A stretch of DNA of 64,000 nt from a virus. The notes beneath the pieces were generated by a model. That model was not told the DNA's origin and made no database searches. It was given only the letters and a program-made list of their open reading frames with translations. This document shows, in pieces, positions 5,548 to 44,150 of the stretch. A program made the translations under genes and the position numbers. The stretch spans positions 96,001-160,000 of the IMG/VR virus record IMGVR_UViG_3300022848_000777; one strand, written 5' to 3'. Numbering within the stretch: position 1 is the first letter of the stretch; each line of letters opens with the position of its first letter.

Positions 5548-8500
5548 ATGGATTTAATAACAAAAACTCAGTATGATTACTTATATAAACTAGCAACAAA
5601 AGGCAAACGTAGGCGGAATCGGTATTATTTGAATGTGCTTTCAAAAGTTAATCCTCAATCCATTATGTTTGAAATAACGGATGTAGATGCTCATATAACG
5701 GATGCAGATGCTCATATACGTGATACTGGAATCAATGTAGTATTCGAATCGGATGTGTGTATTAATTCAAGGTGGCTTTTCAGATTAACTGACGTTGGAA
5801 AACGAACTTTGCCATTAGAATGTCGAAATGCACTTCGTGAAGTATTTGATAGTGAAGAACATAACAGATGTGGATTTTAAATTTACTTTAAATAAGGAAA
5901 TATAATGACATTACTTTGGCTTGATGATATGAGAAACCCATTCATTGATAACTGGTTGCGAGATTACGCACCACGATTTATTGATGAAGAAGTGATTTGG
6001 GTTAGGAGTTACTTAGAATTCACCGATTGGATCAATACTAATGGATTGCCTGATATGATATGTTTTGATCACGATTTAGGTGAGGACGTTGCTAGAGATA
6101 AAGTATCCAATGGACTGAGTAAACGACAAGCTAGGATTCAAAAACGTGAAACAATTAGTGGATTTGAGTGTGCCAAATGGTTAGTTGATTATTGTATTGA
6201 TAATAATGATGAATTACCACAATGGTCTGTGCAAAGTGCAAACCCCGTAGGAAGGGATAATATAAATGGGTTGCTTAACAATTACCGTAACCATTGTAGT
6301 GAATGATACGATATGATAAACCATAGCAAAAATATACTCTTAGATAATACACAGTGGGAATTTCTATATGGTCTAGTAGAACATAGCGGGCCCACTTATG
6401 TAAAAGATCTCACAGGTAATTCTTCAATTAAATTTAATTATCACGGTTTTGGTGTAGATAGTATCATAAAACCTTATATATGGATGTATGTGTACAAGCA
6501 CGGTCAGTCATATCAGTATAAAATTAAACAAAACCATGCCCAACGCCATATAAATGGATCTCAAATCCCACTTTTACTTAAATACACATTAAGAAGTCTA
6601 TGGAACAAAAAACATTTAAATTAACTGAGGAACAATTTCTAAATAAGGTATAATAATTACAGATATGCTCACACAAATCCAATGGGATTATATGGAAAGT
6701 TTAAGTAAATCAGATGGTCGAAGTCATGCTTATATATTATCAAATAATAAACGTGTCTATTTAATACAATCCACTAATGAACCCCATCGATTAACGTTTT
6801 ATATTGATCAAGGAGCCGTAACTGGACCATCATACTCAGTTGTAAGTAGATCGGTGAATCACCACGCCCTCACACGGGAAGTTAGAGAAATAATGCATGA
6901 AATTTGGGAACTTAACAATAAAGATGAATAATTCAACATTATTAACAAAAAAACAATATGATTGGATGTCTCAGATGTCTAAAGTGTATAATGTAGAACC
7001 ACCACTTATCCAATTCAGCTCTTTCAAATTGGGTATATTTACTGGATTATCGGGTCGTATTTACGTTAGAATCGAAAAAGCTGATCATCAGATGTTGTTA
7101 TATTCATTCGAAGAAGATCAAATTGGAGACCGTAGAATGCCACCAATCGTGAAATCGTGTTTAAATGAATATTGGACTCGTTGGAAATTTAAATTAAAAT
7201 TAAAACAAATATTATGAAAATTGTAACAACAGATTACCCCTGTGGAATCAACACAGATGGTCAGAATTTTTATGTAGAGACTGAAATGGTTCGGGATTTA
7301 GATGGTGGCTTTAATGCATGGAAGATGAGGAAAGAACGATTTATAGATGCAAATGAAACTGTAGACGGAATTATATTGTATGATATTACACCTATTACGA
7401 TAGATCATTACAATTACAATACGGGTCTTCAAATTAGATATGCGTACAGTGTAGTTGATGTTAAAGATAAAGTGGTAACGGAAACAATTACAGAAACAAC
7501 GACCGTGACTGAAATCACATATGAATCTAAACCTTCAATAGTGAGCCTCAGATAAAAACTAAGGTAAATAATCCAATCAAACCTGTGTGGGATGAAGATG
7601 AAGTATATACATTATGCTTAAAGTCATATCTACGGGGTCTTTCAGATGCATCATCACATTTCTTTAAAGAAACATTTAGTAAACTTATAGAAGTTCTTAT
7701 GTCGAAGAAGTTAACAAAATCTTAACATAGGAGATTTGGATACCTCATTTAAGTTCCGTACATTGCCTCTGTAATGATTAATAATCATCTAATAATAAAG
7801 ATATGGTATTAAATGATATGGTGAATACGATTTTAACAAAACGACAATGGGATTTTATAAAATGGGCCGCTGATAACGATCACAATCAATTCTATAGTGG
7901 TGATTTCAGAGTAGAACTGAAAAACACACCCATCTTTCTACCAACCGAAGTCATAGAAATTAGATTAATATCTGGTTCTGGAGAAAAAGAACGTAGTTAT
8001 ACCTTTTACGCTCGTGATACAGAGTATATCGATTCTCTCATTAGATCTGACATGATATTCGCACTAAAAAGAATGTGGAATTATCATCGAAGAAATGGAA
8101 ACATATAATTAATTATATAATGACGGTAATGCCTGATTTAACAAAACGACAGTGGGATTTTATAAATAGCAACCACCCAATGTGCTTGCCACCTTACTTT
8201 GGCCGTGATTTCGATTTGATCTCCAAGATTAAATATTTATCACCCTTAAACATAAGGGTTATAGAACTTGAATTAAGAATTGGCACGGGGGAATATGAAT
8301 CTAGTAGAACACTCATTACTGCCGATCCAGTAGATGGAACCACTCATATTCCAGATAATTTCAAAACAGCACTAAGAGAAATGTGGGATTTTCACAACCT
8401 ATATGGTAACATATAATAATTTTATGAGCATGGTAATGAGTACTCCTTTAACAAAACGACAGTGGGATTTTATAAAGAACTATCATAAAGCGACACATAA

Positions 8501-9036
8501 TAGTGGTGTTTACTATGGTGTTGAGTTCACTCTAATCTTTAGGATTTCACATACACCAACCAATTATAGCTATATGGTGGAAGTTGAATTAATAACTGAT
8601 GGTAATGGTAGTAAATTCAGTAAAAGACTGAGTTTTTGCGATCCCACTCAAGGAACCACTCATATTCCAGATGATATGAAATCCGCCCTAAGAAAAATGT
8701 GGGATTATCTTAACCCAATTTTCGATAAATAATAGTTTTCTTATGAATGATAGAGCAACAGCTGAATATTTAACCTCAACACAGTGGGATTTCTTAGAGA
8801 TGTTGATGAAGAGTGGTTGGAATTTCCTTCCTCTAAATGGTAATGAATATATTAAAATAGAATGGGTCGATTTCCCCCCAACTGAAATGATGTTAGATAT
8901 TATTTTATTAATTGATGGTGTAGTTAAATATCAATGGAGAATAGGCCGATATTTGGCCAATTCTAATCAATATCTGGAGCATAATTTGAGAATGACACTT
9001 AGAGACTTATGGGATGAAGTTAATGGTAATAAATAA
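5548..9036 (+). repeat. 8-member paralogous gene family 'LTxxQWDF...LRxMW' (5548-5880, 6313-6624, 6665-6931, 6924-7217, 7803-8108, 8120-8416, 8424-8732, 8743-9036)
   Basis: Shared N-terminal L-T/D-x-x-Q-W/Y-D/E-F/Y/W and C-terminal L-R/K-x-M/L/I-W motifs. DNA repeat ttaacaaaacgaca(a/g)tgggattttataaa at about 7833, 8138 and 8448. Confidence 0.8.
5905..6306 (+). CDS. cyclic-phosphate-processing receiver-like domain protein
   Basis: LWLDDMRNP...ICFDHDLG...GFECAKWL...QSANPVG, the pattern of stand-alone receiver-like proteins seen in phage RNA-repair contexts. Confidence 0.7.
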   Translation: MTLLWLDDMRNPFIDNWLRDYAPRFIDEEVIWVRSYLEFTDWINTNGLPDMICFDHDLGEDVARDKVSNGLSKRQARIQKRETISGFECAKWLVDYCIDNNDELPQWSVQSANPVGRDNINGLLNNYRNHCSE

Positions 9037-9053: not shown

Positions 9054-12000
9054 ATGGAAATAATAGCAGAATTAATGGGAATTGGTATTGGGGCAATTTT
9101 AGTTGGGGTGGTATTTCTAATATTCATCCCATATCGAGTGGGTGAATTTTTAGTATATAATTATATTGGTAAACCGCATGGTGCAAGCGATAATATGAAG
9201 TGGATATATAAATACTTAATAGGATTGGTCGCGGTTGTGATTTTAACATCAGTTTGTTTGGGTGTTGGGTATGGATTAATAGAATTAATAAAATGAGCGG
9301 ATTAAAAGAAAAAATAGAAAGGCACCTTGAGTGGGCAAATAAAAGGCTTAAACTTCAAGGAAAAGAGTTAGATGAAACTCAGATTGAGATATTGCAGTTT
9401 GCTATAGTAAGTGGGTTCACATGCTTAACAGATAAGCAATTCAGTGAGGATATTGAAGAAGCAATTCGAGATGGTGAGATGGTTTCTTACGGGCCCGAAG
9501 GGGCCTACGACTATTTTAGTCAAGAAATTGCATTGGATAATGTTATGGGAGCGATCAATGATCGGTTAAGTGGTACAAATGAATAAATTTAAAAAGAGTC
9601 AGAAATGAAAAAGTATTATTTCATAAATTATGCAATTGATATACCAGGTCAACGTATTTACTATGGTAGGGATTTGGTAGATCAAACCCCATTCCAATAT
9701 GCGATGCATTATACAGAGCTCAATGGTCTTTCTAAAAAAAGAATCATCCTATCCTCTTATGAGATAGAACCTAGTGAATATAGAATGTATAAAGAATTAA
9801 TAAACGATGAGTAAAATGGAGAAAGTAATAGAACTTAAAGAGACCCATCTAAGACGAATTAGAACAGTTAACAAAATGATAGATAACCCATTGACTCCAA
9901 AAGAACGTAGAGATAGATTGGAAGCAAAACTACACACTTACAAATGCTTTATAGTAGAACTAGAGGATATATGTGGGGATCAATAAGAAGATTCCTTAAC
10001 ATAACCTTAACATTGAAAATTAGGCTTAGTGTACTCAATTTCGTATTTTTGTCTTGTTGGGTTGATAACGAAGTCAGCTCGTTAATTTAAGAATTATGAT
10101 AGTAGATCAAAAGCAAAGTGCCATTAAAGAAATTAGAAGTAAATCAATTCAGACGGAGGCGGTTGTAGAATCTATACATCCTGAACGTTATACTCATGAA
10201 GATGAGGAACTAAACGAAATATACGATGATGTCATCATATACGATGACTTTCCTGAACTCTACGAAGATGATGGGTATCTAGGATTGGATACCGATTACT
10301 AATATTAGTAACCCAATAAAAAGAAATTATGAAAGCTAATAAAATAAAAAAAGACGTAAACTCATTTCGATTGAAAGCAATCAATGTGGCTTGTGCTACT
10401 TCGGGATATCAACCATCGTGTGTTGAATATGTATCACTCGATGAAGATGGTATTCGTGTGGTTTTCGACAACCCATTTGGTTTTGGTGATGATGACTACG
10501 ATACAGATACTATCGGTGTTTTATATGAAGATTTAGATAGAGATATCTTCGAACTTATTATAGAACGTATCAAAAATGAGGAAGAAACAAAAGAGCTTGC
10601 TAAAGAAGCAGAAGTGAGTACAAAGATGAATACTAAAGAGAATGAAATAATGCTTCTTAAAGAAGATTTAGAATGTGTTCATATGTACTTAGATGATATG
10701 GACACACCGAGGAAGGATGTTAATGGTAATGTGTATAGTATCGTTGGTAGAATTGAATGTAATAGGAGTGAGCAAATATCAAAAGATAATTTTATAAAGG
10801 CGGTACATACCCTAGGTTTATTTTCATATAAAACGAAATGATATGACACCATTAGAAAAAGCAAAAGAGCTAATAGAGCACTATAAGCAGATACATGATA
10901 CTGATTATGAAATGGAAGCTTATGGAATGATCCCTTTAATGAAGAAACATGAACTTAGTGAATGTGCTAATATATGTGTGGATATGATAATAAAGACATT
11001 AAATGGGCCACAGTTCCAATATAAAGTGAAATCCGAGATAGATTATTGGAATGAGGTGAAGGTGGAGATATCAACTTTTGAAGACCGTTTTACATCATTG
11101 TGAAATTGCAGGGAATGATAAAAAGAATAAATTGTAAACACAATGACAATGGGGCTTGGTGTACTAACATCAATGTTAAACGATCATTATTTGGTATTGG
11201 AGCAAGATGTTGTTCAGAGTATAATGATAAAGAATGTAATCTAAAGGAGTTAAGAGCAAAGAAAGGAAACCCACCACCAAGACCGACATCAATTAAAATA
11301 GATAAATAAAAGAATAAAAACTAACATAAAAACAAAGACAAATGGGAAAAGTTATTTTTATAGGTGAAGGGCCTACAGGTGAAAAGCCAGTTGAGTTTAC
11401 GCATCGTTCAAATGGAACGACGGGTTGGGTTAAATTGAGTACCACACCAATAATTCGTGGGCAAGTAATATACCTTGGCGCGTGTGATTATGATGGTGAT
11501 ATGTTTGCGGTGAAATGGGATTCAGGGTCTATTGACATTTATAAAGGACACCTCAATTCAGGAAATTTCTAAGCAAAAGATAAAATGAAAGATACACTTA
11601 TAGAATTTGAAACCGCAAGGTTAGCTAAAGAAAAAGGGTTTAAAAATAAAAGTAATTATTACAATGGTGCTGGAGAGTTAATAATTCCTAATCATAACCA
11701 TTCTAATAATATGATGCAAAGATTTAGATTTGAAGCACCAACTCAATCATTATTACAGAAATGGTTAAGAAAAAAATATGATATTTATGTTGAAGTAGCT
11801 CTAGATTATGGATACTATAACGATGCCGATGTAAAAGAAACCTATGGCATTCATGGATTTGTGTTTGAAATAGTAAATAAAGGCAAGGAAAAAACCGAGG
11901 ATTCTCAGCTTTATAAAACATACGAAGAAGCATTAGAGAAAGGATTAATGGAAGCATTAAAAATAATAGATATTCAAACAAATAACAACTAACAACTAAC

Positions 12001-32416: not shown

Positions 32417-33010
32417 ATGGAAATAAATAATATCGAAGTTGCGAATCACTTTCTAAAATTCAGATCGGATGATGATTTTTATTATCTACAGATTCTACAG
32501 AGGAAAAAAGAAAACCCTGAATTGGGATCTAATAGTAGAGTGATTAAAAACTACTATATCAATAGTTTAGATTATCTTAACCGAAGGTATGATAGTGAGA
32601 TTATCCCACTATGTAAGCATTTTAATGCTAGAGCAATGCTACGTCTAAACGTTCGTAGTTATCGCAAAGTTGCATATAAATCTATGCAAAATATTGCTAA
32701 CTCAATGGCTAATGGTGAATATGAGTTTATTAAAAAATCATATGATCGGGCGGTTGGAAACGGCCACAATGATGATGTGAAGAAATGGATTTTGGATATT
32801 GATGGTAATATTGATTCTGATTACATAAACCAACTACGTAAATATCTCATAGATCAAAAGCCGTGGGATGATGATAAGGTTTTGTATCAAATGCCTACAA
32901 AAAATGGCATTCATTTAATTACAACACCATTTGATTTACGAAACTTTGGTGTGATTTATCCAGATATCGAAATCCATAAAGATAACCCAATTAATTTGTA
33001 TATTCCTTAG
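32417..33010 (+). CDS. hypothetical protein with AEP primase-polymerase-like motifs
   Basis: WILDID (DxD) and TKNGIHLIT (GxH) motifs. Confidence 0.45.
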   Translation: MEINNIEVANHFLKFRSDDDFYYLQILQRKKENPELGSNSRVIKNYYINSLDYLNRRYDSEIIPLCKHFNARAMLRLNVRSYRKVAYKSMQNIANSMANGEYEFIKKSYDRAVGNGHNDDVKKWILDIDGNIDSDYINQLRKYLIDQKPWDDDKVLYQMPTKNGIHLITTPFDLRNFGVIYPDIEIHKDNPINLYIP

Positions 33011-33066
33011 ATATAAAGATCATACAGTTAAATTACGAATACAATACACATTAAAGAAAATAAAAT

Positions 33067-33351
33067 ATGAACGTACATGAATACCTGCTAACGACAGTTG
33101 GTGAAGAATGCTCAGAAACACACCACAGATGTAGTAAAGCTCTAAAATTCGGTTGGGATGAAGTTCAGATAGGTCAAACTAAGGCAAATAAGGATCGAAT
33201 CCTTTATGAGTTTAATGATCTATTAGCTTCGATGGAAATGTTATACGAAACTGATATTGAAGAATTGATAAACCGTGATCAGATGGATAAGAAGGCGAAA
33301 AAGATAAAACAATATATGAGATATTCAAGAAAACAAGGAACCTTAACATAA
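33067..33351 (+). CDS. MazG-like nucleotide pyrophosphohydrolase
   Basis: EECSE...SKALKFG...EFNDL (ExxE...ExxD). Confidence 0.7.
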   Translation: MNVHEYLLTTVGEECSETHHRCSKALKFGWDEVQIGQTKANKDRILYEFNDLLASMEMLYETDIEELINRDQMDKKAKKIKQYMRYSRKQGTLT

Positions 33352-34238
33352 GGTTAACGTTGAAAATTAGGGTTAACCAAACTAAATTAGTATCTTTATT
33401 TTGTTGGGTTGGGGAAGTAACCTCACCAATTTAAAATTCAAGGTGATATGATTAGTTTTCAAGAATACCAAACATTGTTTCCAATTATCAATAATATCGA
33501 AACCCAATTAGTAGATGCAGAGGTAAGGTTTGATAGAAACCCATGTAAGAGAACCGCAACTAAGTTTTCTAACTTAAAACATACCTTAAAGATCGAAGTA
33601 GTTAAAGCTCTTAAAGAATATAGGGCAACTGATGAGTATGTGGTTGATGTGATTGAAAATGAGAAACAACTGATGATAGAGTTGAATAACATTGTAAAGG
33701 GTATCTAGAATTGAACGAACATAAATAAAATATACAACTATGAATTTTTTCAATAATCTTTTTCATATCAACCGTAAATACCATTGGTATTCTGTTAAAT
33801 TCATCTATGAAACAAAAAATACCAATCATGTTGTTCTTGATTACCATAATCAGGTTGGATTTAAAGATCAATCTTCTATTCTAGATTTTAGAAAGGTAAA
33901 GAAAGCAATGGGCCCGATTTATGGGATAGATTCAACTAGATCTCACCTTTGTAATAGAAACCTTAACGTTGAACTAGTATGTTACTTAGGATATTTTTCA
34001 AAAAAATAATTTAAATGGATGAAACCGAAATTTTGTTACTGATACTATGTATAATTTCTATTATAGTATCAGTTATTTCCTTAATATGGAATTTTGTACT
34101 AAATAAGTGGATAACGGTTGTTAAATCAACTCAAATTGAATTTGCTAATAAATTAAATTCAGTGCATGGTAATACTGTGAATCTCGCTGCATTAGCTAGG
34201 GCTAATAAAATGAAAGTGAATAGATTAAAATCTAAAAA

Positions 34239-34625
34239 GTGATGGCAGCAGATATCCCATTTAGGGTAATAATAGCAGGTGGTCGTGATTACACTGATTA
34301 TCTAAAAGTATGGAATTGTTGTGATTTTTACTTATCAAATAAAGTCAATGGTGTTGAAGTATTAACAGGTGGTGCGGGTGGTGCAGATGCATTAGGTAAG
34401 CAATATGCAGATTTACGTAATTATTCAAATACAATATACTTAGCAAATTGGAAATCGTATGGTAAAACAGCAGGGCCTATTAGAAATGAAAGAATGGTAA
34501 AAAATGCCGATGCATTAATAGCATTTTGGGATGGTCTAAGTAAAGGAACTGGTAATATTATTAAATTAGCGAAAAGAGCTGGTTTATTAATTAGAGTGAT
34601 ATCATATGATCCAATAAAAAAATAA
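34239..34625 (+). CDS. SLOG-family protein (YspA/DUF2493-like)
   Basis: VIIAGGRDY, GGAGGADALG, AGPIRNERM, AFWDGLSKGT. Confidence 0.85.
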   Translation: MMAADIPFRVIIAGGRDYTDYLKVWNCCDFYLSNKVNGVEVLTGGAGGADALGKQYADLRNYSNTIYLANWKSYGKTAGPIRNERMVKNADALIAFWDGLSKGTGNIIKLAKRAGLLIRVISYDPIKK

Positions 34626-34936: not shown

Positions 34937-35023
34937 GGAAGGTTGACAGAATGGTATTGTAGCGGATTGCTAATCCGTGGTCGTTAGTTCGGCTTGTGAG
35001 TTCGAATCTCACATCTTCCACCA
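34937..35023 (+). tRNA. tRNA-Ser(GCT)
   Basis: Cloverleaf with long variable arm and encoded CCA. Confidence 0.92.
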
Positions 35024-35184
35024 AAAATTAATTAACAATTTCTTAACATATGAAATTAGGTTTAACCAAACTAAATTCGTATCTTTGTTTTGTTGGGTTA
35101 GGGAAGAAACGTTTTCTTTAATCATTAGAGTTTGAAATATTAATATCGTTACTGTGGATCGATAGTAACGATTATAAAATAAAT

Positions 35185-35258
35185 GGTACTGCATCATATC
35201 GGTGTATGCTGCTTCCCTGTCACGGAAGAGATTGTGGGTTCGAATCCCATCAGTACCG
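35185..35258 (+). tRNA. tRNA-Asp(GTC)
   Basis: Acceptor GGTACTG/CAGTACC; loop CT-GTC-AC. Confidence 0.9.
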
Positions 35259-35303
35259 CTTTAGAGTTTTTATAAGTTTCTCTTTTAAAGAACTTTGTTT
35301 TTC

Positions 35304-35375
35304 CGCCCATTCGTCTAACGGCTAGGACTTTAGGTTTTCGACCTGAGAATGAGAGTTCGATTCTCTCATGGGTGA
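35304..35375 (+). tRNA. tRNA-Glu(TTC)
   Basis: Acceptor CGCCCAT/ATGGGTG; loop TT-TTC-GA. Confidence 0.85.
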
Positions 35376-35529
35376 CAAATTGGTATAGTTTAGCACATCC
35401 CCATAAGGATGTTAAAACGACTTTCAAGGATAAGGTAAGAAAGATGAATTAACATCTACCGTGCATATTAATAGTTTAGTTCATTGACGTATTGGGAATT
35501 ATGAAGTGGTTTAAATTCCACTTCAATTT

Positions 35530-35618
35530 GGAAGGGCGTATGGCTGGCGTACTTATCAGTCTTGAAAACTGTGATGTCGGGTAAAACTGGCGTGTGGGTT
35601 CGATCCCCACTCTTTCCA
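35530..35618 (+). tRNA. tRNA-Ser(TGA)
   Basis: Loop CT-TGA-AA; long variable arm. Confidence 0.88.
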
Positions 35619-35807
35619 CAACAGCATAGGAACGTGAATACTCATCATTGAAACAAGTACTATACTCTAAGTGAAATTAATATTTAGTAAGTGTTGGTGA
35701 TGCTTCAACGAACGATTGATAAAGTAACTTAAAAAATTATCATTTATGGTAGTGATTGGGAATAGCCAATTAATGCATGAAAACAGCTACCATAAATGAT
35801 TTTACAA

Positions 35808-35881
35808 TGGCTCGTAACTCAGCTGGTTAGAGTACTCGACTTTTAATCGAGGTGTCGTGAGTTCGATCCTCACCGGGCCAA
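35808..35881 (+). tRNA. tRNA-Lys(TTT)
   Basis: Canonical cloverleaf. Confidence 0.93.
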
Positions 35882-36075
35882 CAAATTTCGTTAGTTTAAT
35901 CTTCGTGTTTAACAACACTGAAAAACGCCCTACGTGTGGGTACTGATAGTATGAAATCTATCACGAGATTACTTTATTAAAAAATAACCCAAATGATGTA
36001 TTAGTTCCCATGCACAATGGATCTGATGTGATCATAACGGTATCATATTTCTAGAGTGTGGTATTTAGGGTTTAT

Positions 36076-36160
36076 ACCTTTGTGGCGAAATGGTTAATAC
36101 GCGCTAGCCTTAGAAGCTAGTATCAGAAATGGTGTATGGGTTCGACTCCCATCAGGGGTA
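36076..36160 (+). tRNA. tRNA-Leu(TAG)
   Basis: Cloverleaf with long variable arm. Confidence 0.92.
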
Positions 36161-36165
36161 CACAT

Positions 36166-36248
36166 GCTGGAATGGCGGAATGGTAGACGCGCAGGTTTCA
36201 AAAACCTGTATCCGAAAGGGTGTGTGGGTTCAACTCCCACTTTCAGTA
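36166..36248 (+). tRNA. tRNA-Leu(CAA)
   Basis: Cloverleaf with long variable arm. Confidence 0.92.
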
Positions 36249-36273
36249 CAAACAACTTCTAACGTGGAAGTTG

Positions 36274-36425
36274 GGTAACGTGGTGAAACTGGAAAACACG
36301 CTGTTTGTCTGCATCTGCCTTTGGAATTGGCAATAGTTAAAAGAGGGAAAAGTCATAATCCCGAAACTAGAAACAACTAGGCGAGGCGGGTGACTTAAGT
36401 ATGGGTTCGAATCCCATCGTTACTA
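36274..36425 (+). ncRNA. tRNA-like RNA with a roughly 70-nt structured insert replacing the anticodon loop
   Basis: Acceptor GGTAACG/CGTTACT+A, Leu-type D arm GTG..GG..CAC, perfect T arm ATGGG-TTCGAAT-CCCAT; 152 nt in total. Confidence 0.75.
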
Positions 36426-36527
36426 CTAAGAGAGAAGGAAGCGGCGCATCACTAATCGATGAAAATACGCTGTTGAGGGGGCTGATTAGATGCCATGCGG
36501 ATGTGACGTGAAATTCTCTTTTTAAAT

Positions 36528-36613
36528 GCTCCTGTGGCGAAATGGTTATACGCGCTGGGTTTAAATTCCAGTATCTGAAACATGGTGTGTGGGTTCGAAT
36601 CTCTCTAGAGGTA
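36528..36613 (+). tRNA. tRNA-Leu(TAA), degenerate copy
   Basis: Anticodon arm intact; mismatches in the acceptor (C:A) and T stem (T:T). Confidence 0.7.
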
Positions 36614-37066
36614 CTATTAAAATATATGGGGGTGTGTAAGTAGCACTTACAGGTAGGTAGCATGAGAAGCTTGAAGAATCGGATAGAATTACGTAATATA
36701 TCTGGGAGATAGTTGATAGCTAGAATAAAACCTACTGGCCCACCCTCACCAATTAAATGTTCCTTAATTAAGGAACATTATTAAAATACGGGCCAACTAA
36801 GATTGTAAATTTAGTTAACTACTAGGCTAGTGTGTCACACATGATGAGAAATAGGGTAGTTCCTTATAGTGAAAAGTGGTTGGATGAATTGCCACCAGAT
36901 TGATCATCTGTCTAAGAATTAAGAGATAAATTATAGGCTTCTCACTGATCTATTCCTAACTTTTTACAAATAGGCTGAGTCGGCTCCTTTTTGGATAGAC
37001 ACGATAGTAATTTGTATTGAGGACAACAATGAACATCTCAGCTGGATAATACATGGTGTTCAACTT

Positions 37067-37140
37067 ACTTCTATAGCTCAGTTGGTTAGAGCAATTCTTT
37101 TACATGGAATAGGCCATTGGTTCGAATCCAGTTAGGAGTA
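37067..37140 (+). tRNA. tRNA-Val(TAC)
   Basis: Canonical cloverleaf. Confidence 0.92.
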
Positions 37141-37156
37141 CAATTATTAAAAATAT

Positions 37157-37239
37157 GGGCATCGAAAGTTGATTGGATTCAGCAGCCAGACTGTAAATCT
37201 GGTCCTTTACGGGGAGTGGTTCGAATCCACCGAGGCCCA
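37157..37239 (+). tRNA. tRNA-Tyr(GTA)
   Basis: Loop CT-GTA-AA; long variable arm. Confidence 0.88.
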
Positions 37240-37442
37240 CAATAAAACAAAATCCCACTTGAAGATAAACAACACTTACGTTTGAGACCTTAACATTAAG
37301 TTGGTAGGAGAGGGGTATAAACTGTATCAGCAGTTGTGTTTATTGTAGAGGTAGGCGTAAGATGTTTTGTGGTATAAGTACCCGCCAATCCCTTACAAGT
37401 ATTCCACTGAAATTTGGATGGGGGTTTGTTTTATTTTGATAT

Positions 37443-37513
37443 CGGGTTGACGAATGGGGTATCGGCTATGATTTGGAGTCATGGCGTAGTGAGTTCGACT
37501 CTCACCAACCCGA
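37443..37513 (+). tRNA. tRNA-Pro(TGG)
   Basis: Acceptor CGGGTTG/CAACCCG; reduced D arm. Confidence 0.82.
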
Positions 37514-37527
37514 CGATATTAGTAAAC

Positions 37528-37601
37528 GCATCTGTAACTCAATTGGATAGAGTGTCTGCCTTCGAAGCAGAGAGTTGGGAGTTCGAGTCTCTCCAGGTGT
37601 G
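37528..37601 (+). tRNA. tRNA-Arg(TCG)
   Basis: Canonical cloverleaf. Confidence 0.9.
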
Positions 37602-37815
37602 CAATTGTAATATAATATTACTTCATAAAAACTTGAAATAGATGTGGTAAAACACTACGTATCGGGTAGAATGGATAGGCAAAATAGGTTGGGGTTATAC
37701 ACAAGTCATGTAAATAGGAAGCTACCCATCACTATCCAATAAGATTGATGAAAATATTAACGATTATCCTTTAGAGTGGTGACTAACATCAATTATAATT
37801 TATCTATTTCAATAT

Positions 37816-37887
37816 TGCCCCCTCATCTAATTGGCAGGATGCCTGGTTTTGAGCCAGAGAATTGAGGTTCGAATCCTTGGGGGGCAA
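37816..37887 (+). tRNA. tRNA-Gln(TTG)
   Basis: Acceptor TGCCCCC/GGGGGCA. Confidence 0.9.
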
Positions 37888-37901
37888 CTATATTTAAAAT
37901 C

Positions 37902-37975
37902 GGTTCCATAGTTTAGAAGGCATAAAATAAATCTCTTGTAAAGATTAGAAATCAGTTCGATCCTGATTGGAACCT
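37902..37975 (+). tRNA. tRNA-Thr(TGT)
   Basis: Loop CT-TGT-AA. Confidence 0.88.
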
Positions 37976-37979
37976 CTAA

Positions 37980-38051
37980 GGTGTTGTAACTCAGCGGTAG
38001 AGTGCTAGATTGAAGATCTAGTGGTCGGTGGTTCGATCCCACCCAGCACCA
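37980..38051 (+). tRNA. tRNA-Phe(GAA)
   Basis: Canonical cloverleaf. Confidence 0.92.
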
Positions 38052-38064
38052 CAATATAAAATAC

Positions 38065-38136
38065 ACAAGTGTCGTCTAATGGCTAAGATTACGGATTCCA
38101 AACCCGTAGATGGGGGTTCGATACCTTTCACTTGTG
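38065..38136 (+). tRNA. tRNA-Trp(CCA)
   Basis: Loop TT-CCA-AA. Confidence 0.88.
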
Positions 38137-38228
38137 CAATTATTAACAATTTGGTAACATAGAAAATTAGGATATGATATCAAATAACCGTATCTTTATT
38201 TCATTCTGTTGATTCAGAACTATAACAT

Positions 38229-38302
38229 TCCCCCGTAGCTCAGTTGGTTAGAGCGGCACCCTGTTAAGGTGAGGGTCATAGGTTCGAATCCTATTGGGGG
38301 AG
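38229..38302 (+). tRNA. tRNA-Asn(GTT)
   Basis: Canonical cloverleaf. Confidence 0.92.
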
Positions 38303-38349
38303 CAACATAAATTAAATAACATATAAAATCTTAGAAGTTTGATAAGTAT

Positions 38350-38423
38350 GGGTATATAGCTCAATTGGTTAGAGCATCACCCTGATACGGTGAAGGTTAT
38401 GAGTTCGAGTCTCATTATACCCA
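38350..38423 (+). tRNA. tRNA-Ile(GAT)
   Basis: Canonical cloverleaf. Confidence 0.93.
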
Positions 38424-38547
38424 CTTAATTTTAATACGGAGATGTAATGAAGAAATTAATAAAAGAGAACTTAGATACTATAGGTATACTTGTATTTTTA
38501 ACAATTTATACGTTAATTGTAATAAGTTATATGTACTAAGTAATTAT

Positions 38548-38622
38548 GGTGATTATAGCTCAGTTGGTTAGAGTGCTTGACTGTGAATCAAGAGGTCGTC
38601 AGTTCGAGTCTGACTTTTCACC
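38548..38622 (+). tRNA. tRNA-His(GTG)
   Basis: G-1:C73 present; two T:T mismatches in the acceptor stem. Confidence 0.88.
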
Positions 38623-38628
38623 CAAAAT

Positions 38629-38700
38629 GCCGTAACTTTTGGAAGGGTAAGGTGTAAGCGCTTATGCTAGTTGCTTGGGGTTCGAATCCCCGTTACGGCT
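38629..38700 (+). ncRNA. tRNA-like RNA with no assignable anticodon
   Basis: Perfect acceptor GCCGTAA/TTACGGC+T and T arm TGGGG-TTCGAAT-CCCCG; the anticodon arm cannot form a 5-bp stem with a 7-nt loop. Confidence 0.7.
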
Positions 38701-38773
38701 CAAATATTTAAATCAAAGCGGAAGATTGTACATTAAATTGTCCGAAGTACTTAACAGATTGATTTAAAATTAT

Positions 38774-38847
38774 GGTATAGTACCCAAGTGGTCTAAAGGG
38801 GCGGGTTGCAACCCCGTTATTCATTGGTTCGAATCCAATCTATACCT
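38774..38847 (+). tRNA. tRNA-Cys(GCA)
   Basis: U73; loop TT-GCA-AC. Confidence 0.9.
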
Positions 38848-38875
38848 CTAATATAAACAAGTAATATATGTAATA

Positions 38876-39328
38876 ATGAAAGTTTTCAAAAAAGTAAACG
38901 GTGAAAAAGTAGATGTAATTAAACACACTTTGGATGTAATCAAAAAAAACCCTGATGTAGAAATACATATCGGTACAGATTCACAAAGCAGTGGACATCT
39001 AACCACATACGTTACTGTGATTGCTTACAGATATTCCACACGTGGAGTTCATTACATATTTTGGAAAGAAAAAGTACCTAGAATTAAAGATAAGTTTACT
39101 AAATTATACAAAGAAACTGTATTGACTATTGAAGTAGCTGAATGGTTTACTTCTCAAATCAAAAGTGTAAAGGTTGAATTGGATTTCGATTACAATGGTG
39201 ATAAAAAGCACTTCTCTCAAAGATTAGTTCCAGCAACGAAAGGTTGGGCAGAAGGTTTGGGATATAAGGTGAATATTAAACCAGTAAAGCAAATCGCTAC
39301 TCATGCAGCGGATTACCACTGTAGATAA
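38876..39328 (+). CDS. RNase H-like YkuK/DUF458 family protein
   Basis: IHIGTDSQ...KLYKE...ELDFD...ATHAAD. Confidence 0.85.
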   Translation: MKVFKKVNGEKVDVIKHTLDVIKKNPDVEIHIGTDSQSSGHLTTYVTVIAYRYSTRGVHYIFWKEKVPRIKDKFTKLYKETVLTIEVAEWFTSQIKSVKVELDFDYNGDKKHFSQRLVPATKGWAEGLGYKVNIKPVKQIATHAADYHCR

Positions 39329-39648
39329 CTTCACAATTTAATATTGTAGAAATTCCAGCTGGGAAGTGGAAGTTAACACATAAATATGGTATATCAGAAA
39401 AAGGATATCACGAGAATTTACCATACGCTACGATGGAATTATTGAAATAAATTAGGATTATCGAAATATTATCCGTATATTGTAAGAGCAGATTAAGAGT
39501 GAGAGCAAAAGAAACACATCATGCGAAAACCCTTCGTTTGAAAATGAGCTGTTGAGTTTGGGAATCGGGAGATAAAACGATGAATATACAGCATTGAGAT
39601 AGGGCCCAAAAGCCTCTGATGTGTTTTTTTATATTAATGATTACATAT

Positions 39649-39722
39649 GCGCCCATAGTTCAACTGGATAGAGCATTGTTTTTCTAAAGCAATAGTTGTG
39701 AGTTCGAGTCTCGCTGGGCGTA
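39649..39722 (+). tRNA. tRNA-Arg(TCT)
   Basis: Canonical cloverleaf. Confidence 0.92.
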
Positions 39723-39739
39723 CTAAAATACAATAAAAT

Positions 39740-39813
39740 TGCGGGGTGGACTGGAGAGGCTCCAGCTCGGTCTCATAAGCCGAATGACGTAGGTTCGAAT
39801 CCTATCCCCGCAA
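39740..39813 (+). tRNA. tRNA-Met(CAT), initiator-like
   Basis: Acceptor TGCGGGG/CCCCGCA+A, as in fMet tRNAs. Confidence 0.85.
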
Positions 39814-40162
39814 CTAAACTTATAATGACTATAAGTGAAGCTAAAAGAAGTTGGAATTTGATAAGGGTTTATCACCAACACCAGTTATTTTTAGAAACCC
39901 CGAAAGACCCGAAGTGGTCGTTGTAAGTTTTTTATAAAAATTAATTCAACAATTATGATATTTAATTAAAGGTTAAACCTATGACCTTGTGGAGTATTAA
40001 GCACGTTCGAGTAATGTAAGAGCTTAATAACACTAAATAAAGATAGAATATAAATTGTTAGTATTAGGCTTCCTACCATAGTATAAGATTCCTAATAGAC
40101 ATATTATATCTATTATACTACACTCAATAGGTTGAAAAATGAGTGTATACTTTTATAAAACT

Positions 40163-40237
40163 ATGGAAGAATGGAGAATAATTAGAGATTACGTGGATTA
40201 TAGTGTTTCTAATAAATCAACGATTACTATACTATGA
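40163..40237 (+). pseudogene. NUMOD4 (HNH homing endonuclease N-terminus) remnant
   Basis: MEEWRIIRDYVDYSVSNK followed by an early stop. Confidence 0.55.
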
Positions 40238-40319
40238 TACCGATGGTAGTTTAGATGAAATAATGCATGAGAATGGTAAATTTATAAGATTTGCACCATT
40301 CCGTTAAGTATGATTAAAT

Positions 40320-40405
40320 GCCTCGATGGTGAAATTGGTAGACACGCTGGACTTAAAATTCAGTCCTCAGTGATGGGGGTACGGGTTCGAATCCCGTTCG
40401 GGGCA
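40320..40405 (+). tRNA. tRNA-Leu(TAA)
   Basis: Canonical, with long variable arm. Confidence 0.93.
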
Positions 40406-40640
40406 CTACAAAAATAATGATAAGGTTTTTAACGGTGTTAAGAATCAACTATAATTAACAACATAGATAACCTATATAATATATAATCTTATATAGTTAA
40501 TAATATGATGGGTATACATATGAAAGGAATAATCCACATATATGCAATCTGAATAAGTAGTTATAGAAGATTCACCTGATTCAGATTCATTTTACCGATT
40601 CGCTGGTATTATGATATAACGCGAAATGAAACCGTTTAAT

Positions 40641-40714
40641 GGGGTCTTAGCTCAGTTGGCCAGAGCACTGGATTTGCAATTCAGATGTCAGGGGTTCGAA
40701 TCCCCTAGGCTCCA
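40641..40714 (+). tRNA. tRNA-Ala(TGC)
   Basis: G3:U70 present. Confidence 0.93.
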
Positions 40715-40733
40715 CTTTTTTAAATTAATAGAT

Positions 40734-41222
40734 ATGAAGATAATATTTTTAGATATTGATGGTGTTATGGTTCCCGATTACCAAAAGGTAAATGATCAAG
40801 CATTTCCTAAAGATAATGATTGGGATGCAAAACCATTTTCTCAAAAAGGAATGATAACGTTAAATAATGCAATTTTATCAACTGATGCTAGAGTAGTTAT
40901 TAGTTCAGATTGGAGAAAGCATTATTCGTTACAGGTTATGAGAGATATTTTTGTAGCAGCTGGAATTCTTTATGGTGAAGATACTATTATTGGATATACT
41001 AAAATAATAGGATATGGTGATTATAAATCTAATAGAGCACAAGAAATTCTAGAATGGGTTAGTCTACATAGACCAGATCAATGGGTTGCTATTGATGATT
41101 TAGATTTATCACCATACTTATCAGAGGATAACTTTGTCCACTGTAAATACCCAATTGAGGGTATTAAACAACTCGGCAAACGAGCAGAGATTGAAATAAA
41201 ATTAGGAAGAATTAAACAATAA
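40734..41222 (+). CDS. HAD-family phosphatase, RNA-repair ('Swiss Army Knife') type
   Basis: IIFLDIDGV, VISSDWR, RAQEILEW, WVAIDD. True start is 40734; the upstream extension in the ORF track is tRNA-Ala. Confidence 0.82.
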   Translation: MKIIFLDIDGVMVPDYQKVNDQAFPKDNDWDAKPFSQKGMITLNNAILSTDARVVISSDWRKHYSLQVMRDIFVAAGILYGEDTIIGYTKIIGYGDYKSNRAQEILEWVSLHRPDQWVAIDDLDLSPYLSEDNFVHCKYPIEGIKQLGKRAEIEIKLGRIKQ

Positions 41223-41240
41223 CGATTGTTTATAATAATT

Positions 41241-41635
41241 GGGGCTGACTTGGAATTGATTAGCAGATCTAGTTTATGTGAGTGCAATCAGAGAAATGTC
41301 ATCTATCTCTATAATCTATGGTGATAATAGTTAAACGACGAAAAGTCAGATTTTACCTTCGAAGATGCAATGTCTTTCGTAGGTGGTGAGTTCGCTCTAG
41401 CAGCGTAGCCGATGGGTGATAACTACCTAGAAACAGAAAGTTATAAGTGGGTGCTAACTACCTTAAAGTGTAGTAGGATAGTGGAAATCCGTTATGAGAA
41501 TGTTTTTACAAAGTTGACATTATAAACCACATCAATAATTTTGGTATTTTGTTTATTTAGAAAAATGAACTATGATTGTGAATGAATTTGTATGACGTGC
41601 TGAATAAGACGAGGGTTCGAATCCCTCCAGCTCCA
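41241..41635 (+). ncRNA. ssrA: tmRNA
   Basis: GGGGCTG...GAGGGTTCGAATCCCTC-CAGCTCCA with G3:U70. Tag ORF 41337-41408 reads DEKSDFTFEDAMSFVGGEFALAA*. Confidence 0.95.
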
Positions 41636-41714
41636 GATAACCGAAATTAACACACCTGCACGTGGTGGTTATCGCATATTCCGATTTGGAATAACTAAGA
41701 TGTTAATAATATAA

Positions 41715-41788
41715 GCGTGAGTAGCTCAGTTGGTCAGAGCGTTTGGTTTCCAACCAAAGGGTCGTGGGTTCGAATCCCACCTTGCGCT
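41715..41788 (+). tRNA. tRNA-Gly(TCC)
   Basis: Canonical cloverleaf. Confidence 0.93.
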
Positions 41789-41861
41789 CAAATAAACATT
41801 AAATTAAATTAGGATATATAAAATAGAATTCGTATATTGTATTTATATAATATATATTATC

Positions 41862-41936
41862 GGGCCTTTAGCTCAGTTGGTTAGTAGCAGTACGCTCATA
41901 ACGTAAAGGTCGGGGGTTCGAGTCCCTCAAGGCCCA
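41862..41936 (+). tRNA. tRNA(CAT), probably Ile2 (lysidine type)
   Basis: Acceptor GGGCCTT/AAGGCCC resembles Ile2; elongator Met is not excluded. Confidence 0.8.
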
Positions 41937-41962
41937 CTCAAATTAAATAATAAGGATGATAA

Positions 41963-42559
41963 ATGAAAGTAGTAACATTAGAGAACCTAGCATACGCTAT
42001 TAAATACGGTAACAAATCATCAGTTAATGAGGCCTCATTAAATAGGGTATATCAACATACTCAAAAAGAAGCATCTGATAGCTTTTCTATAATCACCGCA
42101 TATCGTGGTGGTAATAGTAAATCAGATAACACAAAAAGAAATAAACGATTGGAATCTGATGTTAGATCATTAGGATTGGGTTTCTTTAAAGTTAAAGGTT
42201 ATTGGATGGAATGTAAGAGTGCTGATATTGATTACTCTAAATGTCCTGATGATATGAAGATACCAGTAGTTGAAGAATCGTTATTCATTCCCAATATAAC
42301 TAAATCAAATGCAGTTAGGTTAGCAAAGAAATACGATCAAGATGCTATCATCTATCAAGGTAAAGAAACCAACGATACTGTTGAATTGATTTCAAAATCA
42401 GGTGGTTCTATTGATAAAATTGGTAAGTTTTCAGCTGGGAAAATAGCAAGAGCATATACTAAGGTTAAAGGTAAATCATTTACGTTTGAAGGATTTGAGT
42501 ATAAACCAAATGGGATGTTAACTAGAATGGCATTTGAATCGATAATGAAGAAAGTATGA
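41963..42559 (+). CDS. SAM lyase/DUF3293-like protein
   Basis: IITAYR...N..RNKRL...LG...VKGYWME...EESLFI...AKKYDQDAII, a pattern resembling phage SAM lyases. Confidence 0.55.
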   Translation: MKVVTLENLAYAIKYGNKSSVNEASLNRVYQHTQKEASDSFSIITAYRGGNSKSDNTKRNKRLESDVRSLGLGFFKVKGYWMECKSADIDYSKCPDDMKIPVVEESLFIPNITKSNAVRLAKKYDQDAIIYQGKETNDTVELISKSGGSIDKIGKFSAGKIARAYTKVKGKSFTFEGFEYKPNGMLTRMAFESIMKKV

Positions 42560-42915
42560 GGTGGGAGAATGTAAGTTTACCTAATAAGATACAATATCTT
42601 AAACAATTAATGAATAATTCTACAGTAGATGTAAGTAGAGATGTCGATGTCATAGATGCATTAATCACAGGTTCAACGACACCATTTTATATGGATGATG
42701 AACTTCAATTTAAAATGCAAGATTCACATATTACATACATGAAAAATTTATGGAATGTAGTTGTAGGTTTACAAAAAAATCAATCAATAATTGATTTAAT
42801 TAAAAGTGAAGTAAAATAATATTTAACATTAATTTAACATCAAAAGTTTTGTTAAGTTAATTTTAATACTTATATTAGCACGGTTGAAACGATAATGATT
42901 GTGGAAACTATAAAT

Positions 42916-42988
42916 GCGGGTGAGGGGTTAAGGGAATACCCGTTTAACTTCCAGTTAGAAGAAGGTGGGTCAGTTCCATCCACCCGCT
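42916..42988 (+). tRNA. tRNA-Gly(TCC), non-canonical T loop
   Basis: Acceptor GCGGGTG/CACCCGC+T, loop CT-TCC-AG, T loop GTCAGTT instead of TTCRANY. Confidence 0.75.
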
Positions 42989-43094
42989 CAAAAAGATTTA
43001 ACATTAATTTAACATATTAAATTTGGATATCTTATTTAAGTTTCGTATATTGTGGGTGTTAAATAAGTAAAGAAATCGTTCTTTGAAAGTATTG

Positions 43095-44150
43095 AAAGTA
43101 TTAAACTAAATACATGATTAATCCTACTTCGGTAGTAGGCACCGATTTGGCATCGGGGTTGAAGATAATCTACGTATTACCACTGTCCAATGGGAGTTTA
43201 ATAATATTGGGTAGTTTGATATCCAATTAAAGTATCATCGATGTGTAACAGCCAGGCTGACAATAAGTTGATAGTTTAATAAAGAATAGAAATCCGTAAG
43301 GATTTTGAAAGGTGATATATCACATCTCATCGCTAATTCGTTAGTTCATTTAAACAAGCAACATCTTACCTGATACTCAAATCAGGCCATCATTACCAAA
43401 TGGTGGATATAGCAGTAAGTTGATGTAATCGGGCCCTTGAGAAAGGATACGTTCAGAGCCATTCGGTGAGAACTAATAAGTGTAGTAACTTACCCCATTA
43501 CAAACTAAATCAATGTAGTTAGAATAGGATAAGTTGTAGAGTGTGAGTTTGATTCCTTGCTAGGGATAAGGCGAACATTCAGTATGAAAGGTAAAAGGAT
43601 TCGTATAGAATTCGTAGTAATCTTAAAATACCGCACAGTAGGATTTGCAATCCGAAACGTATGAGGTGTGTTGTATTTTGTATCTCAAAAGGGTATGAAG
43701 CAACTGTTGAAGCACACCTTCGTGAATTTAAACTTTGTAAGTTAGCTCAGTTGGTAGAGCATTTGCCTCAGAAGCAGATTGTCGGTGGTTCAAATCCATC
43801 ACTTACTATCATATAGATAGAAAAAAGCAAAGACTTCAACAGTTATGGAAAACAAATCACCTAATCCTACACTCTTAGGAGAATGTAGGTTCGTAGAAGC
43901 TCGCAAGGCAGAAATGAATTGATTGAATTCTGCACTTAATCACTTCGCGGTGATGAATGGCTCGCAAGGTCAGAGGAAAGATGAAAGTTGAGTAGTTCCA
44001 TAATGATATGAGTATAGCCACTCATTAAAAAAGGCGGTGATGTTGTCATACATTCGTGTTGAATGTGGATACGTTATTAACAATAGAGGTCGCACTTTAT
44101 TGGCACGGTAACAAAAGTGATAACATAAGAGGTTTAATCTCAACCTACCA
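43095..44150 (+). ncRNA. GOLLD-like giant structured RNA
   Basis: About 1.05 kb ORF-free and hairpin-rich (GNRA/UUCG loops), behind its own promoter, adjacent to tRNAs and containing an embedded tRNA. Segments ggtgtgttgtatt..caaaag..gaagcacacc, ctcgcaagg (twice), gagtag and 3' taatctca match my recollection of GOLLD. Confidence 0.65.
43736..43808 (+). tRNA. tRNA with CAG anticodon but short variable loop, embedded in the giant RNA
   Basis: GTAAGT/ACTTAC, GCTC-AGTTGGTA-GAGC, TTTGC-CTCAGAA-GCAGA, TTGTC, GGTGG-TTCAAAT-CCATC. Confidence 0.78.

Follow-up and report, generated by a model that had tools for sequence, protein, structure and literature searches.

A tRNA-Leu-type scaffold without an anticodon arm in the tRNA array of a large freshwater phage

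Introduction

Phage tRNA clusters are now viewed chiefly as a codon supply or as anti-defence tools, and the role of cluster members that do not decode, such as T4 RNAC, has been unassigned for fifty years. The locus described here raises the question of why a gene with the top half of a leucine tRNA, but with no usable anticodon arm, lies in such a cluster. It was found in a window of 64,000 nt, the whole stretch of DNA that was analysed, which corresponds to positions 96001-160000 of a 174,750-bp IMG/VR virus record (GC ~32%). Positions are those of the window unless another genome or contig is named. Taken alone, this 152-nt element is weak evidence for anything. It led, however, to a large set of elements with the acceptor sequence AGTCAGG, whose genes escape standard tRNA finders and which offer a tractable comparative route to the purpose of the anticodon-less tRNA top half. 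For the element itself, the reading developed below is that of a processed, non-decoding tRNA-like RNA, in which any function would reside in the top half and not in the insert; we regard this as an evenly balanced judgement.

Results

The element and its setting

The source genome is that of a large freshwater phage (~175 kb), whose baseplate gene has relatives in Microcystis phage Mel-JY01 (52% amino acid identity) and in Flavobacterium phages (43%). ARAGORN placed 27 tRNAs at 34937-43810, every one on the + strand. Within this stretch a tmRNA (41241-41635; tag DEKSDFTFEDAMSFVGGEFALAA) was identified by ARAGORN and Rfam. A GOLLD RNA at 43663-44146 (184.7 bits) encloses a tRNA Leu CAG, located by ARAGORN at 43735-43810. 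The 152-nt element (36274-36425) has tRNA-Leu(CAA) (36166-36249, + strand) as its 5' neighbour and tRNA-Leu(UAA) (36528-36614, + strand) as its 3' neighbour; the same array holds a tRNA-Leu(UAG) at 36076 and a second tRNA-Leu(UAA) at 40320-40405. A 7-bp hairpin (36253-36273, + strand) fills the 24 nt that separate the element from tRNA-Leu(CAA). The element is co-oriented with the array and has neither a promoter nor a terminator to itself; the adjoining DNA contains nothing promoter-like and, on the + strand, nothing terminator-like.

Several protein-coding features of the phage touch on RNA or lie close to the array. An RNaseH_like gene (38876-39328), a YspA/SLOG gene (34239-34625) and a HAD_SAK_2 gene (ORF 40626-41222, with a shorter called gene of 162 aa) are located in or beside it. 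An open frame of 1139 aa upstream of the window contains a PolyA_pol/CCA-adding nucleotidyltransferase domain (G000 79496-79849), and an RNA ligase gene lies, likewise upstream, at G000 90797-91372. Absent from the genome are an integrase or tyrosine recombinase, a TROVE/Ro60 gene and a Leu/Phe-tRNA protein transferase, the last being a possible user of a leucylated RNA.

All parts of the element are encoded on the + strand. The 5' acceptor strand GGTAACG (36274-36280) forms 7/7 pairs with 36418-36424, including G1.U72. It is followed by U8, G9 and a Leu-type D arm (36281-36299) with the stem GTG/CAC (36283-85/36297-99) and the D loop AAACTGGAAAA, which contains GG. Where a tRNA would have its anticodon and variable arms, there is a middle of 101 nt (36300-36400) with hairpins at 36316-32, 36346-62 and 36367-80. 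The T arm ATGGG-TTCGAAT-CCCAT (36401-36417) and the 3' acceptor strand CGTTACT with A73 (36418-36425, A73 being 36425) complete the scaffold. CCA is not encoded, and the trailer reads CTAAG. By canonical tRNA criteria the 7-bp acceptor, the D arm with GG and the T arm with a TTCRA loop are present, while a 5-bp anticodon stem with a 7-nt loop is absent from its standard place, 101 nt separating the D and T arms.

The whole genome was searched for T arms combined with complementary acceptor strands of 7 nt, all within 260 nt. Besides ordinary tRNAs, the 152-nt element was the sole convincing long element with such a scaffold in the 174,750 bp. It was called neither by ARAGORN at default settings nor by the Rfam tRNA model RF00005, at the gathering threshold or at E<=10. 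An initial sequence-only reading of this DNA had described intact acceptor, D and T arms with A73 and a Leu-like D arm, and both the sequence and the independent scan confirm them. The small hairpins and an AGTCA/TGACT pairing that it had listed were also located, and its overall picture of a tRNA-Leu-type scaffold lacking a usable anticodon arm was borne out.

The middle of the element

The 101-nt middle had been proposed to contain a structured domain of ~70 nt. Its folding does not bear this out. Compared with dinucleotide shuffles, the RNAfold minimum free energy corresponds to z = -1.58 for the whole element and to z = -0.84 for a 98-nt middle alone, and three 4-bp hairpins per ~100 nt are the chance expectation. 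In the stem thought to enclose the hairpins, CTGTTTGTC/GGCGAGGCGG, G.U pairs predominate, and RNAfold prefers other pairing. A search of 36200-36560 with all Rfam families at E<=10 returned noise only (RAGATH-33 with 13.8 bits, RT-18). In exact-word scans of IMG/VR, an 18-mer of the insert had a single chance match, located in a coding region, a 20-mer from the 3' end of the element had zero matches, and a 20-mer of the D arm matched ordinary tRNA-Leu genes and YrlA-like modules. No antisense target of the insert longer than 12 nt was found in the phage's own genome. By inspection, the 9-nt hairpin loop TTTGGAATT has no complementarity to a proposed polB frameshift/hop site. With no excess of folding, no Rfam match and no similar middle elsewhere, there is no support for a functional domain that is structured or conserved. 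A tmRNA identity was rejected as well: only the T arm matches RF00023 (9.3 bits), and the phage's real tmRNA is that at 41241-41635. The earlier exclusion of a tmRNA and of a group I intron thus held, no Rfam intron family being matched.

One way to restore decoding would be to remove part of the middle as an intron. Run with the option -i, ARAGORN yields a tRNA-Leu(UAG) interrupted after position 33, before position 34, by an intron of 61 nt (36307-36367), whose removal would leave a decoding tRNA of 91 nt with exactly the stem GCTGT/ACAAC and a loop UU/UAGAA that provides U33 and A37. The Leu isotype agrees with the Leu-type D arm and A73. However, when the middle was replaced by dinucleotide shuffles in the fixed scaffold, 435 of 600 (72%) were also called intron-containing tRNAs, 60 of the 600 as Leu, and with another allowed intron range the real sequence was called Arg(UCU). 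The call is therefore uninformative, and the unusual intron-containing tRNA that had been offered as an alternative does no better than chance. The predicted stem moreover has a C.A mismatch, nucleotide 26 is absent, no Rfam intron family matches (E<=10), and the array already holds the tRNA-Leu(UAG) at 36076. To our knowledge, 61 nt, or the 61-101 nt available, is far below the size of any group I intron. We consider an intron at this site very unlikely.

Origin and relatives of the element

The first 30 nt of the element have their closest counterpart in the tRNA-Leu(UAA) gene at 40320, with 23/30 identical positions including G26. The middle starts with G-CTG, which matches G26 and the first three anticodon-stem bases of tRNA-Leu(UAA), and ends with GACTTAAGT (36392-36400), a match to tRNA-Leu(UAA) over its anticodon loop and the two final bases of the stem. 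A GACTTAA remnant in the element also matches the gene at 40320. The element further shares with the other Leu genes of the array its first pair (G1.U72 or A1-U72), the base A73 and a trailer of the form C(A/T)A. On account of the 5' match, the GACTTAAGT match and these common end features, the element is, by its sequence, a rearranged paralogue of the phage's own tRNA-Leu genes and not a foreign tRNA look-alike.

Contigs from other samples that encode an identical RNaseH-like neighbour protein were 100% identical over the shared sequence; only one of them (L111) extends to the element. Every other copy of the element is likewise 100% identical, so that there is no variation by which conservation or covariation could be judged, and this weighs against a processed, non-decoding RNA. 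The only match of one metagenome scan (L269) is a variant haplotype, identical across the element, with one SNP in the downstream spacer (36477) before the sequences diverge. Past the divergence point it carries an intact tRNA-Leu(UAA) and then a tRNA-Arg(CCU). The tRNA-Leu(UAA) of the window at 36528-36614 is a T-loop chimera in which the T stem and the acceptor are mispaired. Given the intact tRNA-Leu(UAA) and the tRNA-Arg(CCU) of the variant haplotype, the form in the window looks like a product of T-loop recombination. This chimera shows that wrecked tRNA genes arise and persist in the array, again to the disadvantage of the non-decoding RNA.

The closest distinct relative (L117/L118; RNaseH-like neighbour 82% identical) keeps the order of genes and tRNAs. 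Its Lys-to-Val slot has no homologue of the element, a further point against the preferred reading, and contains just a truncated tRNA-like stub and a pair of short tRNA-Leu genes. The sequence-only reading would have been refuted by relatives that show a normal tRNA with a recent random insertion; the outcome was a different one, the slot in L117/L118 being without any counterpart. The tRNA-Leu(UAA) (7010-7086) and tRNA-Leu(UAG) (7247-7322) of L117 measure only 76-77 nt and are type I-like, with no long variable arm. In the stub (L117 7360-7425), which has acceptor, D and T arms, 18 nt replace the anticodon arm and the variable loop. The syntenic Lys-to-Val slot of a further relative (L124) contains a tRNA-Leu-like gene of 99 nt (8659-8757). 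Its anticodon loop has 8 nt (ARAGORN 'ataa'), its variable arm 26 nt, and its T arm is identical to that of the element. As judged across these relatives, tRNA-Leu genes turn over rapidly in this slot. Relatives found via the baseplate protein (62-69% identity) yielded no match, and two found via the RNaseH-like protein (P0025, P0026) were not syntenic.

The element might accordingly be read as a plain pseudogene, that is, a tRNA-Leu duplicate wrecked by insertion or rearrangement in the anticodon region within an unstable array. Such a relic could be transcribed and even processed; it would have no role, and its decay would be still to come. The nearest relative's slot without the element agrees with this, as do the unstructured and unconserved middle, the turnover of the slot in all relatives examined (the 76-77-nt Leu genes and stub of L117, the 99-nt gene of L124) and the T-loop chimera adjoining the element. 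A relic is harder to reconcile with a scaffold in which 15/15 base pairs and the consensus of the T and D loops are intact, whereas the middle is tRNA-like only in two short remnants. The same pattern of a retained top half moreover recurs in more than 100 independent elements from diverse phages (see below), which is unlike neutral decay. The pseudogene is a strong rival, although we regard it as somewhat less probable than the processed RNA.

A family of anticodon-less tRNA-Leu derivatives

Elements of this kind were collected from IMG/VR by means of the exact 21-mer GGTTCGAATCCTGTCCTGACT, which gave more than 120 contigs among the matches listed (L130-L249). They come from diverse phage types and combine unrelated middles with an acceptor (AGTCAGG/CCTGACT) and a T arm (ACAGG-TTCGAAT-CCTGT) that are both nearly invariant, although the acceptor cannot vary in a set that is fixed by a 3' 21-mer. 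In 104 of the 112 matches listed a pairing 5' strand (AGTCAGG or a close variant) was found upstream; TG and a D arm of the Leu type usually come next. Total length ranges from 54 to 181 nt among the matches listed. A73 is present in 94 of the 103 unique elements listed, and ARAGORN calls only 19 of these 103, with scattered 'anticodons'. Among the matches listed there are up to seven copies per 5 kb, on the same strand, interleaved with real tRNAs and small ORFs, and the elements are strand-biased with the genes. A few members, for example L201, resemble a genuine tRNA-Leu(UAA), and the family thus derives from a phage tRNA-Leu lineage. The unusual architecture noted at the outset recurs widely in other phages. 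The set is apparently undescribed; no published description of AGTCAGG elements was found.

Mimicry of host sequences by the family scaffold was considered and rejected: in cellular genomes the family 21-mer was confined to 18 MAG contigs, most of them from Bacteroidota, with no match in an isolate genome. Neither these MAGs nor 151 sampled genomes from the class to which one of them, a Flavobacterium MAG, belongs yielded a close host tRNA-Leu, apart from that MAG's own matching contig; one weak T-arm match in an unpublished genome was set aside. A related complete phage of 197 kb (G005; 54% identity in the baseplate protein) carries seven elements, 74-128 nt long, none of them within its tRNA array (32982-33103, 33279-33370, 96360-96464, 106043-106116, 106354-106480, 107044-107171 and 112749-112873). 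Their acceptor is AGT(C/T)AGG/CCTGACT, their T arm is ACAGG-TTCGAAT-CCTGT or a variant with 1-2 changed bases, and most possess a D arm of the Leu type. The seven middles are mutually unrelated, and each element is wedged between same-strand genes, for example at a NAMPT/RNA ligase junction and upstream of HAD_SAK_2. In a relative with a syntenic array (L119), a family member of 152 nt (9199-9350) lies inside the array. ARAGORN finds no tRNA-Leu in L119 6961-12354, where this anticodon-less element is the sole Leu-type gene.

The diversity of the middles bears on the possibility that the insert is a functional cargo, an aptamer, sRNA or guide stabilised by the tRNA frame. A conserved frame joined to highly diverse inserts is what the family displays. 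The middles listed fall into 84 singletons and 9 small clusters, so some insert classes recur across contigs, and in orthologous pairs the middle is nearly as conserved as the D arm (0.83 versus 0.87). One other class, represented by L141 (587-742, - strand) and L166 (5302-5469, - strand), consists of two tRNA-like RNAs (156 and 168 nt) whose middles of ~100 nt are clearly conserved, which also speaks for a cargo; it matches no Rfam family, and its acceptors differ by a compensatory change (TGTCAGG/CCTGACA versus TGTAAGG/CCTTACA). Family inserts are nevertheless scarcely more structured than shuffles on average (mean z -0.58). The insert studied here, at z = -0.84, has no homologue, no Rfam match and no complementarity above 12 nt in its own genome, and none of the family middles compared resembles it. 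For this element a cargo is quite unlikely.

The sequences might also act as DNA, as a tRNA-derived site of recombination or integration or as a cassette boundary. T-loop recombination demonstrably reshapes the array, and family elements sit at gene boundaries with very diverse neighbours, no protein family being enriched among 143 flanking ORFs. A DNA site would not be expected to follow the strand of the genes, as the elements do. In the phage genome, moreover, the element is present as a single copy with no second site, and no tyrosine recombinase is encoded. Other acceptor classes in the family contigs have both strands changed with pairing kept (AGCCAAG/CTTGGCT and TGTCAGG/CCTGACA), and this points to RNA, with the reservation that variant-acceptor elements were picked for perfect pairing. 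A role at the DNA level thus seems highly improbable.

The element and the AGTCAGG family have in common a Leu-type D arm, A73, an intact top half, a variable middle and the lack of a canonical anticodon arm. They also agree in having no encoded CCA, in their coding-strand sites in or near tRNA arrays and in their similar lengths. The family signature consists of the AGTCAGG acceptor and the T stem ACAGG/CCTGT, whereas the element has GGTAACG/CGTTACT and ATGGG/CCCAT, a difference that weighs against the preferred reading. Pairs 1-72, 4-69, 6-67, 50-64 and 51-63 differ from the signature, and all of them still pair. The element occurs once in its genome; family elements reach up to seven copies among the matches listed. 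Scored with a covariance model derived solely from this anticodon-less family (44 members), the element reached 39.3 bits (E 5e-8), the second-highest value in the array, above three tRNA-Leu genes (27, 27 and 17 bits) and all remaining tRNAs but one, which speaks for the preferred reading. The genuine tRNA-Leu(UAA) at 40320 outscores it with 44.9 bits, so that a match to the family model is not specific for membership, and this lack of specificity counts against the preferred reading. In our comparison the element has the architecture of the family and tRNA-Leu ancestry without the signature, and we do not class it as a member.

Discussion

RNase P, RNase Z and the CCA-adding enzyme recognise a tRNA by its acceptor/T minihelix and elbow, and in the case of leucine tRNAs the synthetase does so too. 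If the element is a processed, non-decoding tRNA-like RNA, it would be transcribed together with the tRNA array. Its excision by RNase P and the enzymes that process tRNA 3' ends would be expected, since they read only the minihelix and the elbow, both of which are kept. CCA could then be added, and the genome itself encodes a nucleotidyltransferase domain of the CCA-adding type. A stable tRNA-like RNA of ~152-155 nt might thus accumulate, unable to decode, like T4 RNAC. The expectation of such an RNA is based on the conserved minihelix and elbow, the CCA-type domain and the lack of a promoter or terminator that would separate the element from the array. The intact scaffold, unique within the genome, and the presence of both a PolyA_pol/CCA-adding domain and an RNA ligase are in keeping with it. 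So are the 5' match and remnants of tRNA-Leu(UAA), the more than 120 viral contigs with elements of like architecture, the seven elements of G005, the 152-nt member within the L119 array, the parallel of T4 RNAC and the independence of LeuRS from the anticodon.

Whether this RNA has a role is, in our estimate, roughly balanced; that it is a tolerated by-product appears somewhat less probable, the intron, cargo and DNA-site readings dividing what is left. Candidate roles for the top half include a processing or punctuation signal, a binder of or competitor for tRNA-handling enzymes such as LeuRS, and a decoy for tRNA-directed defence. Known anti-phage tRNases cut mostly in the anticodon arm (PMC13056530). 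Without that arm the element cannot be a substrate of such nucleases; as a speculation, it could still compete for their binding. Extending this to the AGTCAGG family, one may imagine a phage 'tRNA handle' system, in which the strictly selected top half recruits processing, CCA-adding and possibly leucylating enzymes of the host or of the phage itself. It would either punctuate phage transcripts or yield RNAs that are stable, possibly charged and unable to decode, and that would titrate enzymes binding tRNA or defence nucleases directed against tRNA. We offer this wider scheme as an unlikely but explicit proposal.

Non-decoding tRNA-like folds are familiar from plant mitochondrial t-elements and from the mascRNA of MALAT1, which are recognised by RNase P and RNase Z via the acceptor/T domain. 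Unlike the phage element, these sit in mRNAs or lncRNAs of eukaryotic systems. Like the element, Y RNAs of the YrlA type combine an acceptor helix with D and T arms that resemble those of a tRNA, and have no anticodon. YrlA is, however, circularly permuted, with its ends in a stem that replaces the anticodon arm and with a loop-closed acceptor helix, whereas the element has normal tRNA topology. This topology and the absence of a TROVE/Ro60 gene from the genome led us to reject a YrlA/Y RNA identity. Several tandem permuted tRNA-like modules of the YrlA/Y RNA type were observed on a phage contig retrieved with the D-arm 20-mer (L005 250-900, - strand), at the end of an array of 26 tRNAs. Their order is T arm, closed acceptor hairpin and D arm, they have no Rfam match at E<=0.1, and the contig encodes a TROVE (Ro60-like) protein.

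That LeuRS largely ignores the anticodon, as the sequence-only reading had maintained, is supported by published work: A73 and the D/T tertiary core suffice as determinants for bacterial LeuRS, and deletion of the anticodon stem-loop has little effect on aminoacylation and costs the Aquifex enzyme only 2.5-fold in affinity, the arm being needed for editing (PMC2377443). The minimal tRNA-Leu substrates of LeuRS are laboratory constructs, while the element is natural and carries a 100-nt insert.

Close parallels in setting are T4 RNAC (species 1 RNA) and RNAD, of which RNAC is expressed and without known role (PMC3014915, PMC9697503). By eye RNAC and the element have no sequence relationship, and their hosts are unrelated. 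T4 RNAC also differs from the element by two U.U mismatches in its acceptor-like stem and by the lack of an obvious Leu-type D arm. Both are nevertheless small RNA genes in a phage tRNA cluster, of 139 and 152 nt, the T4 RNA being a stable one. At its 3' end T4 RNAC has a perfect T arm, CCGGG-TTCGAAT-CCCGG, followed by an acceptor-like strand that pairs with the 5' end, and it, too, has no anticodon arm.
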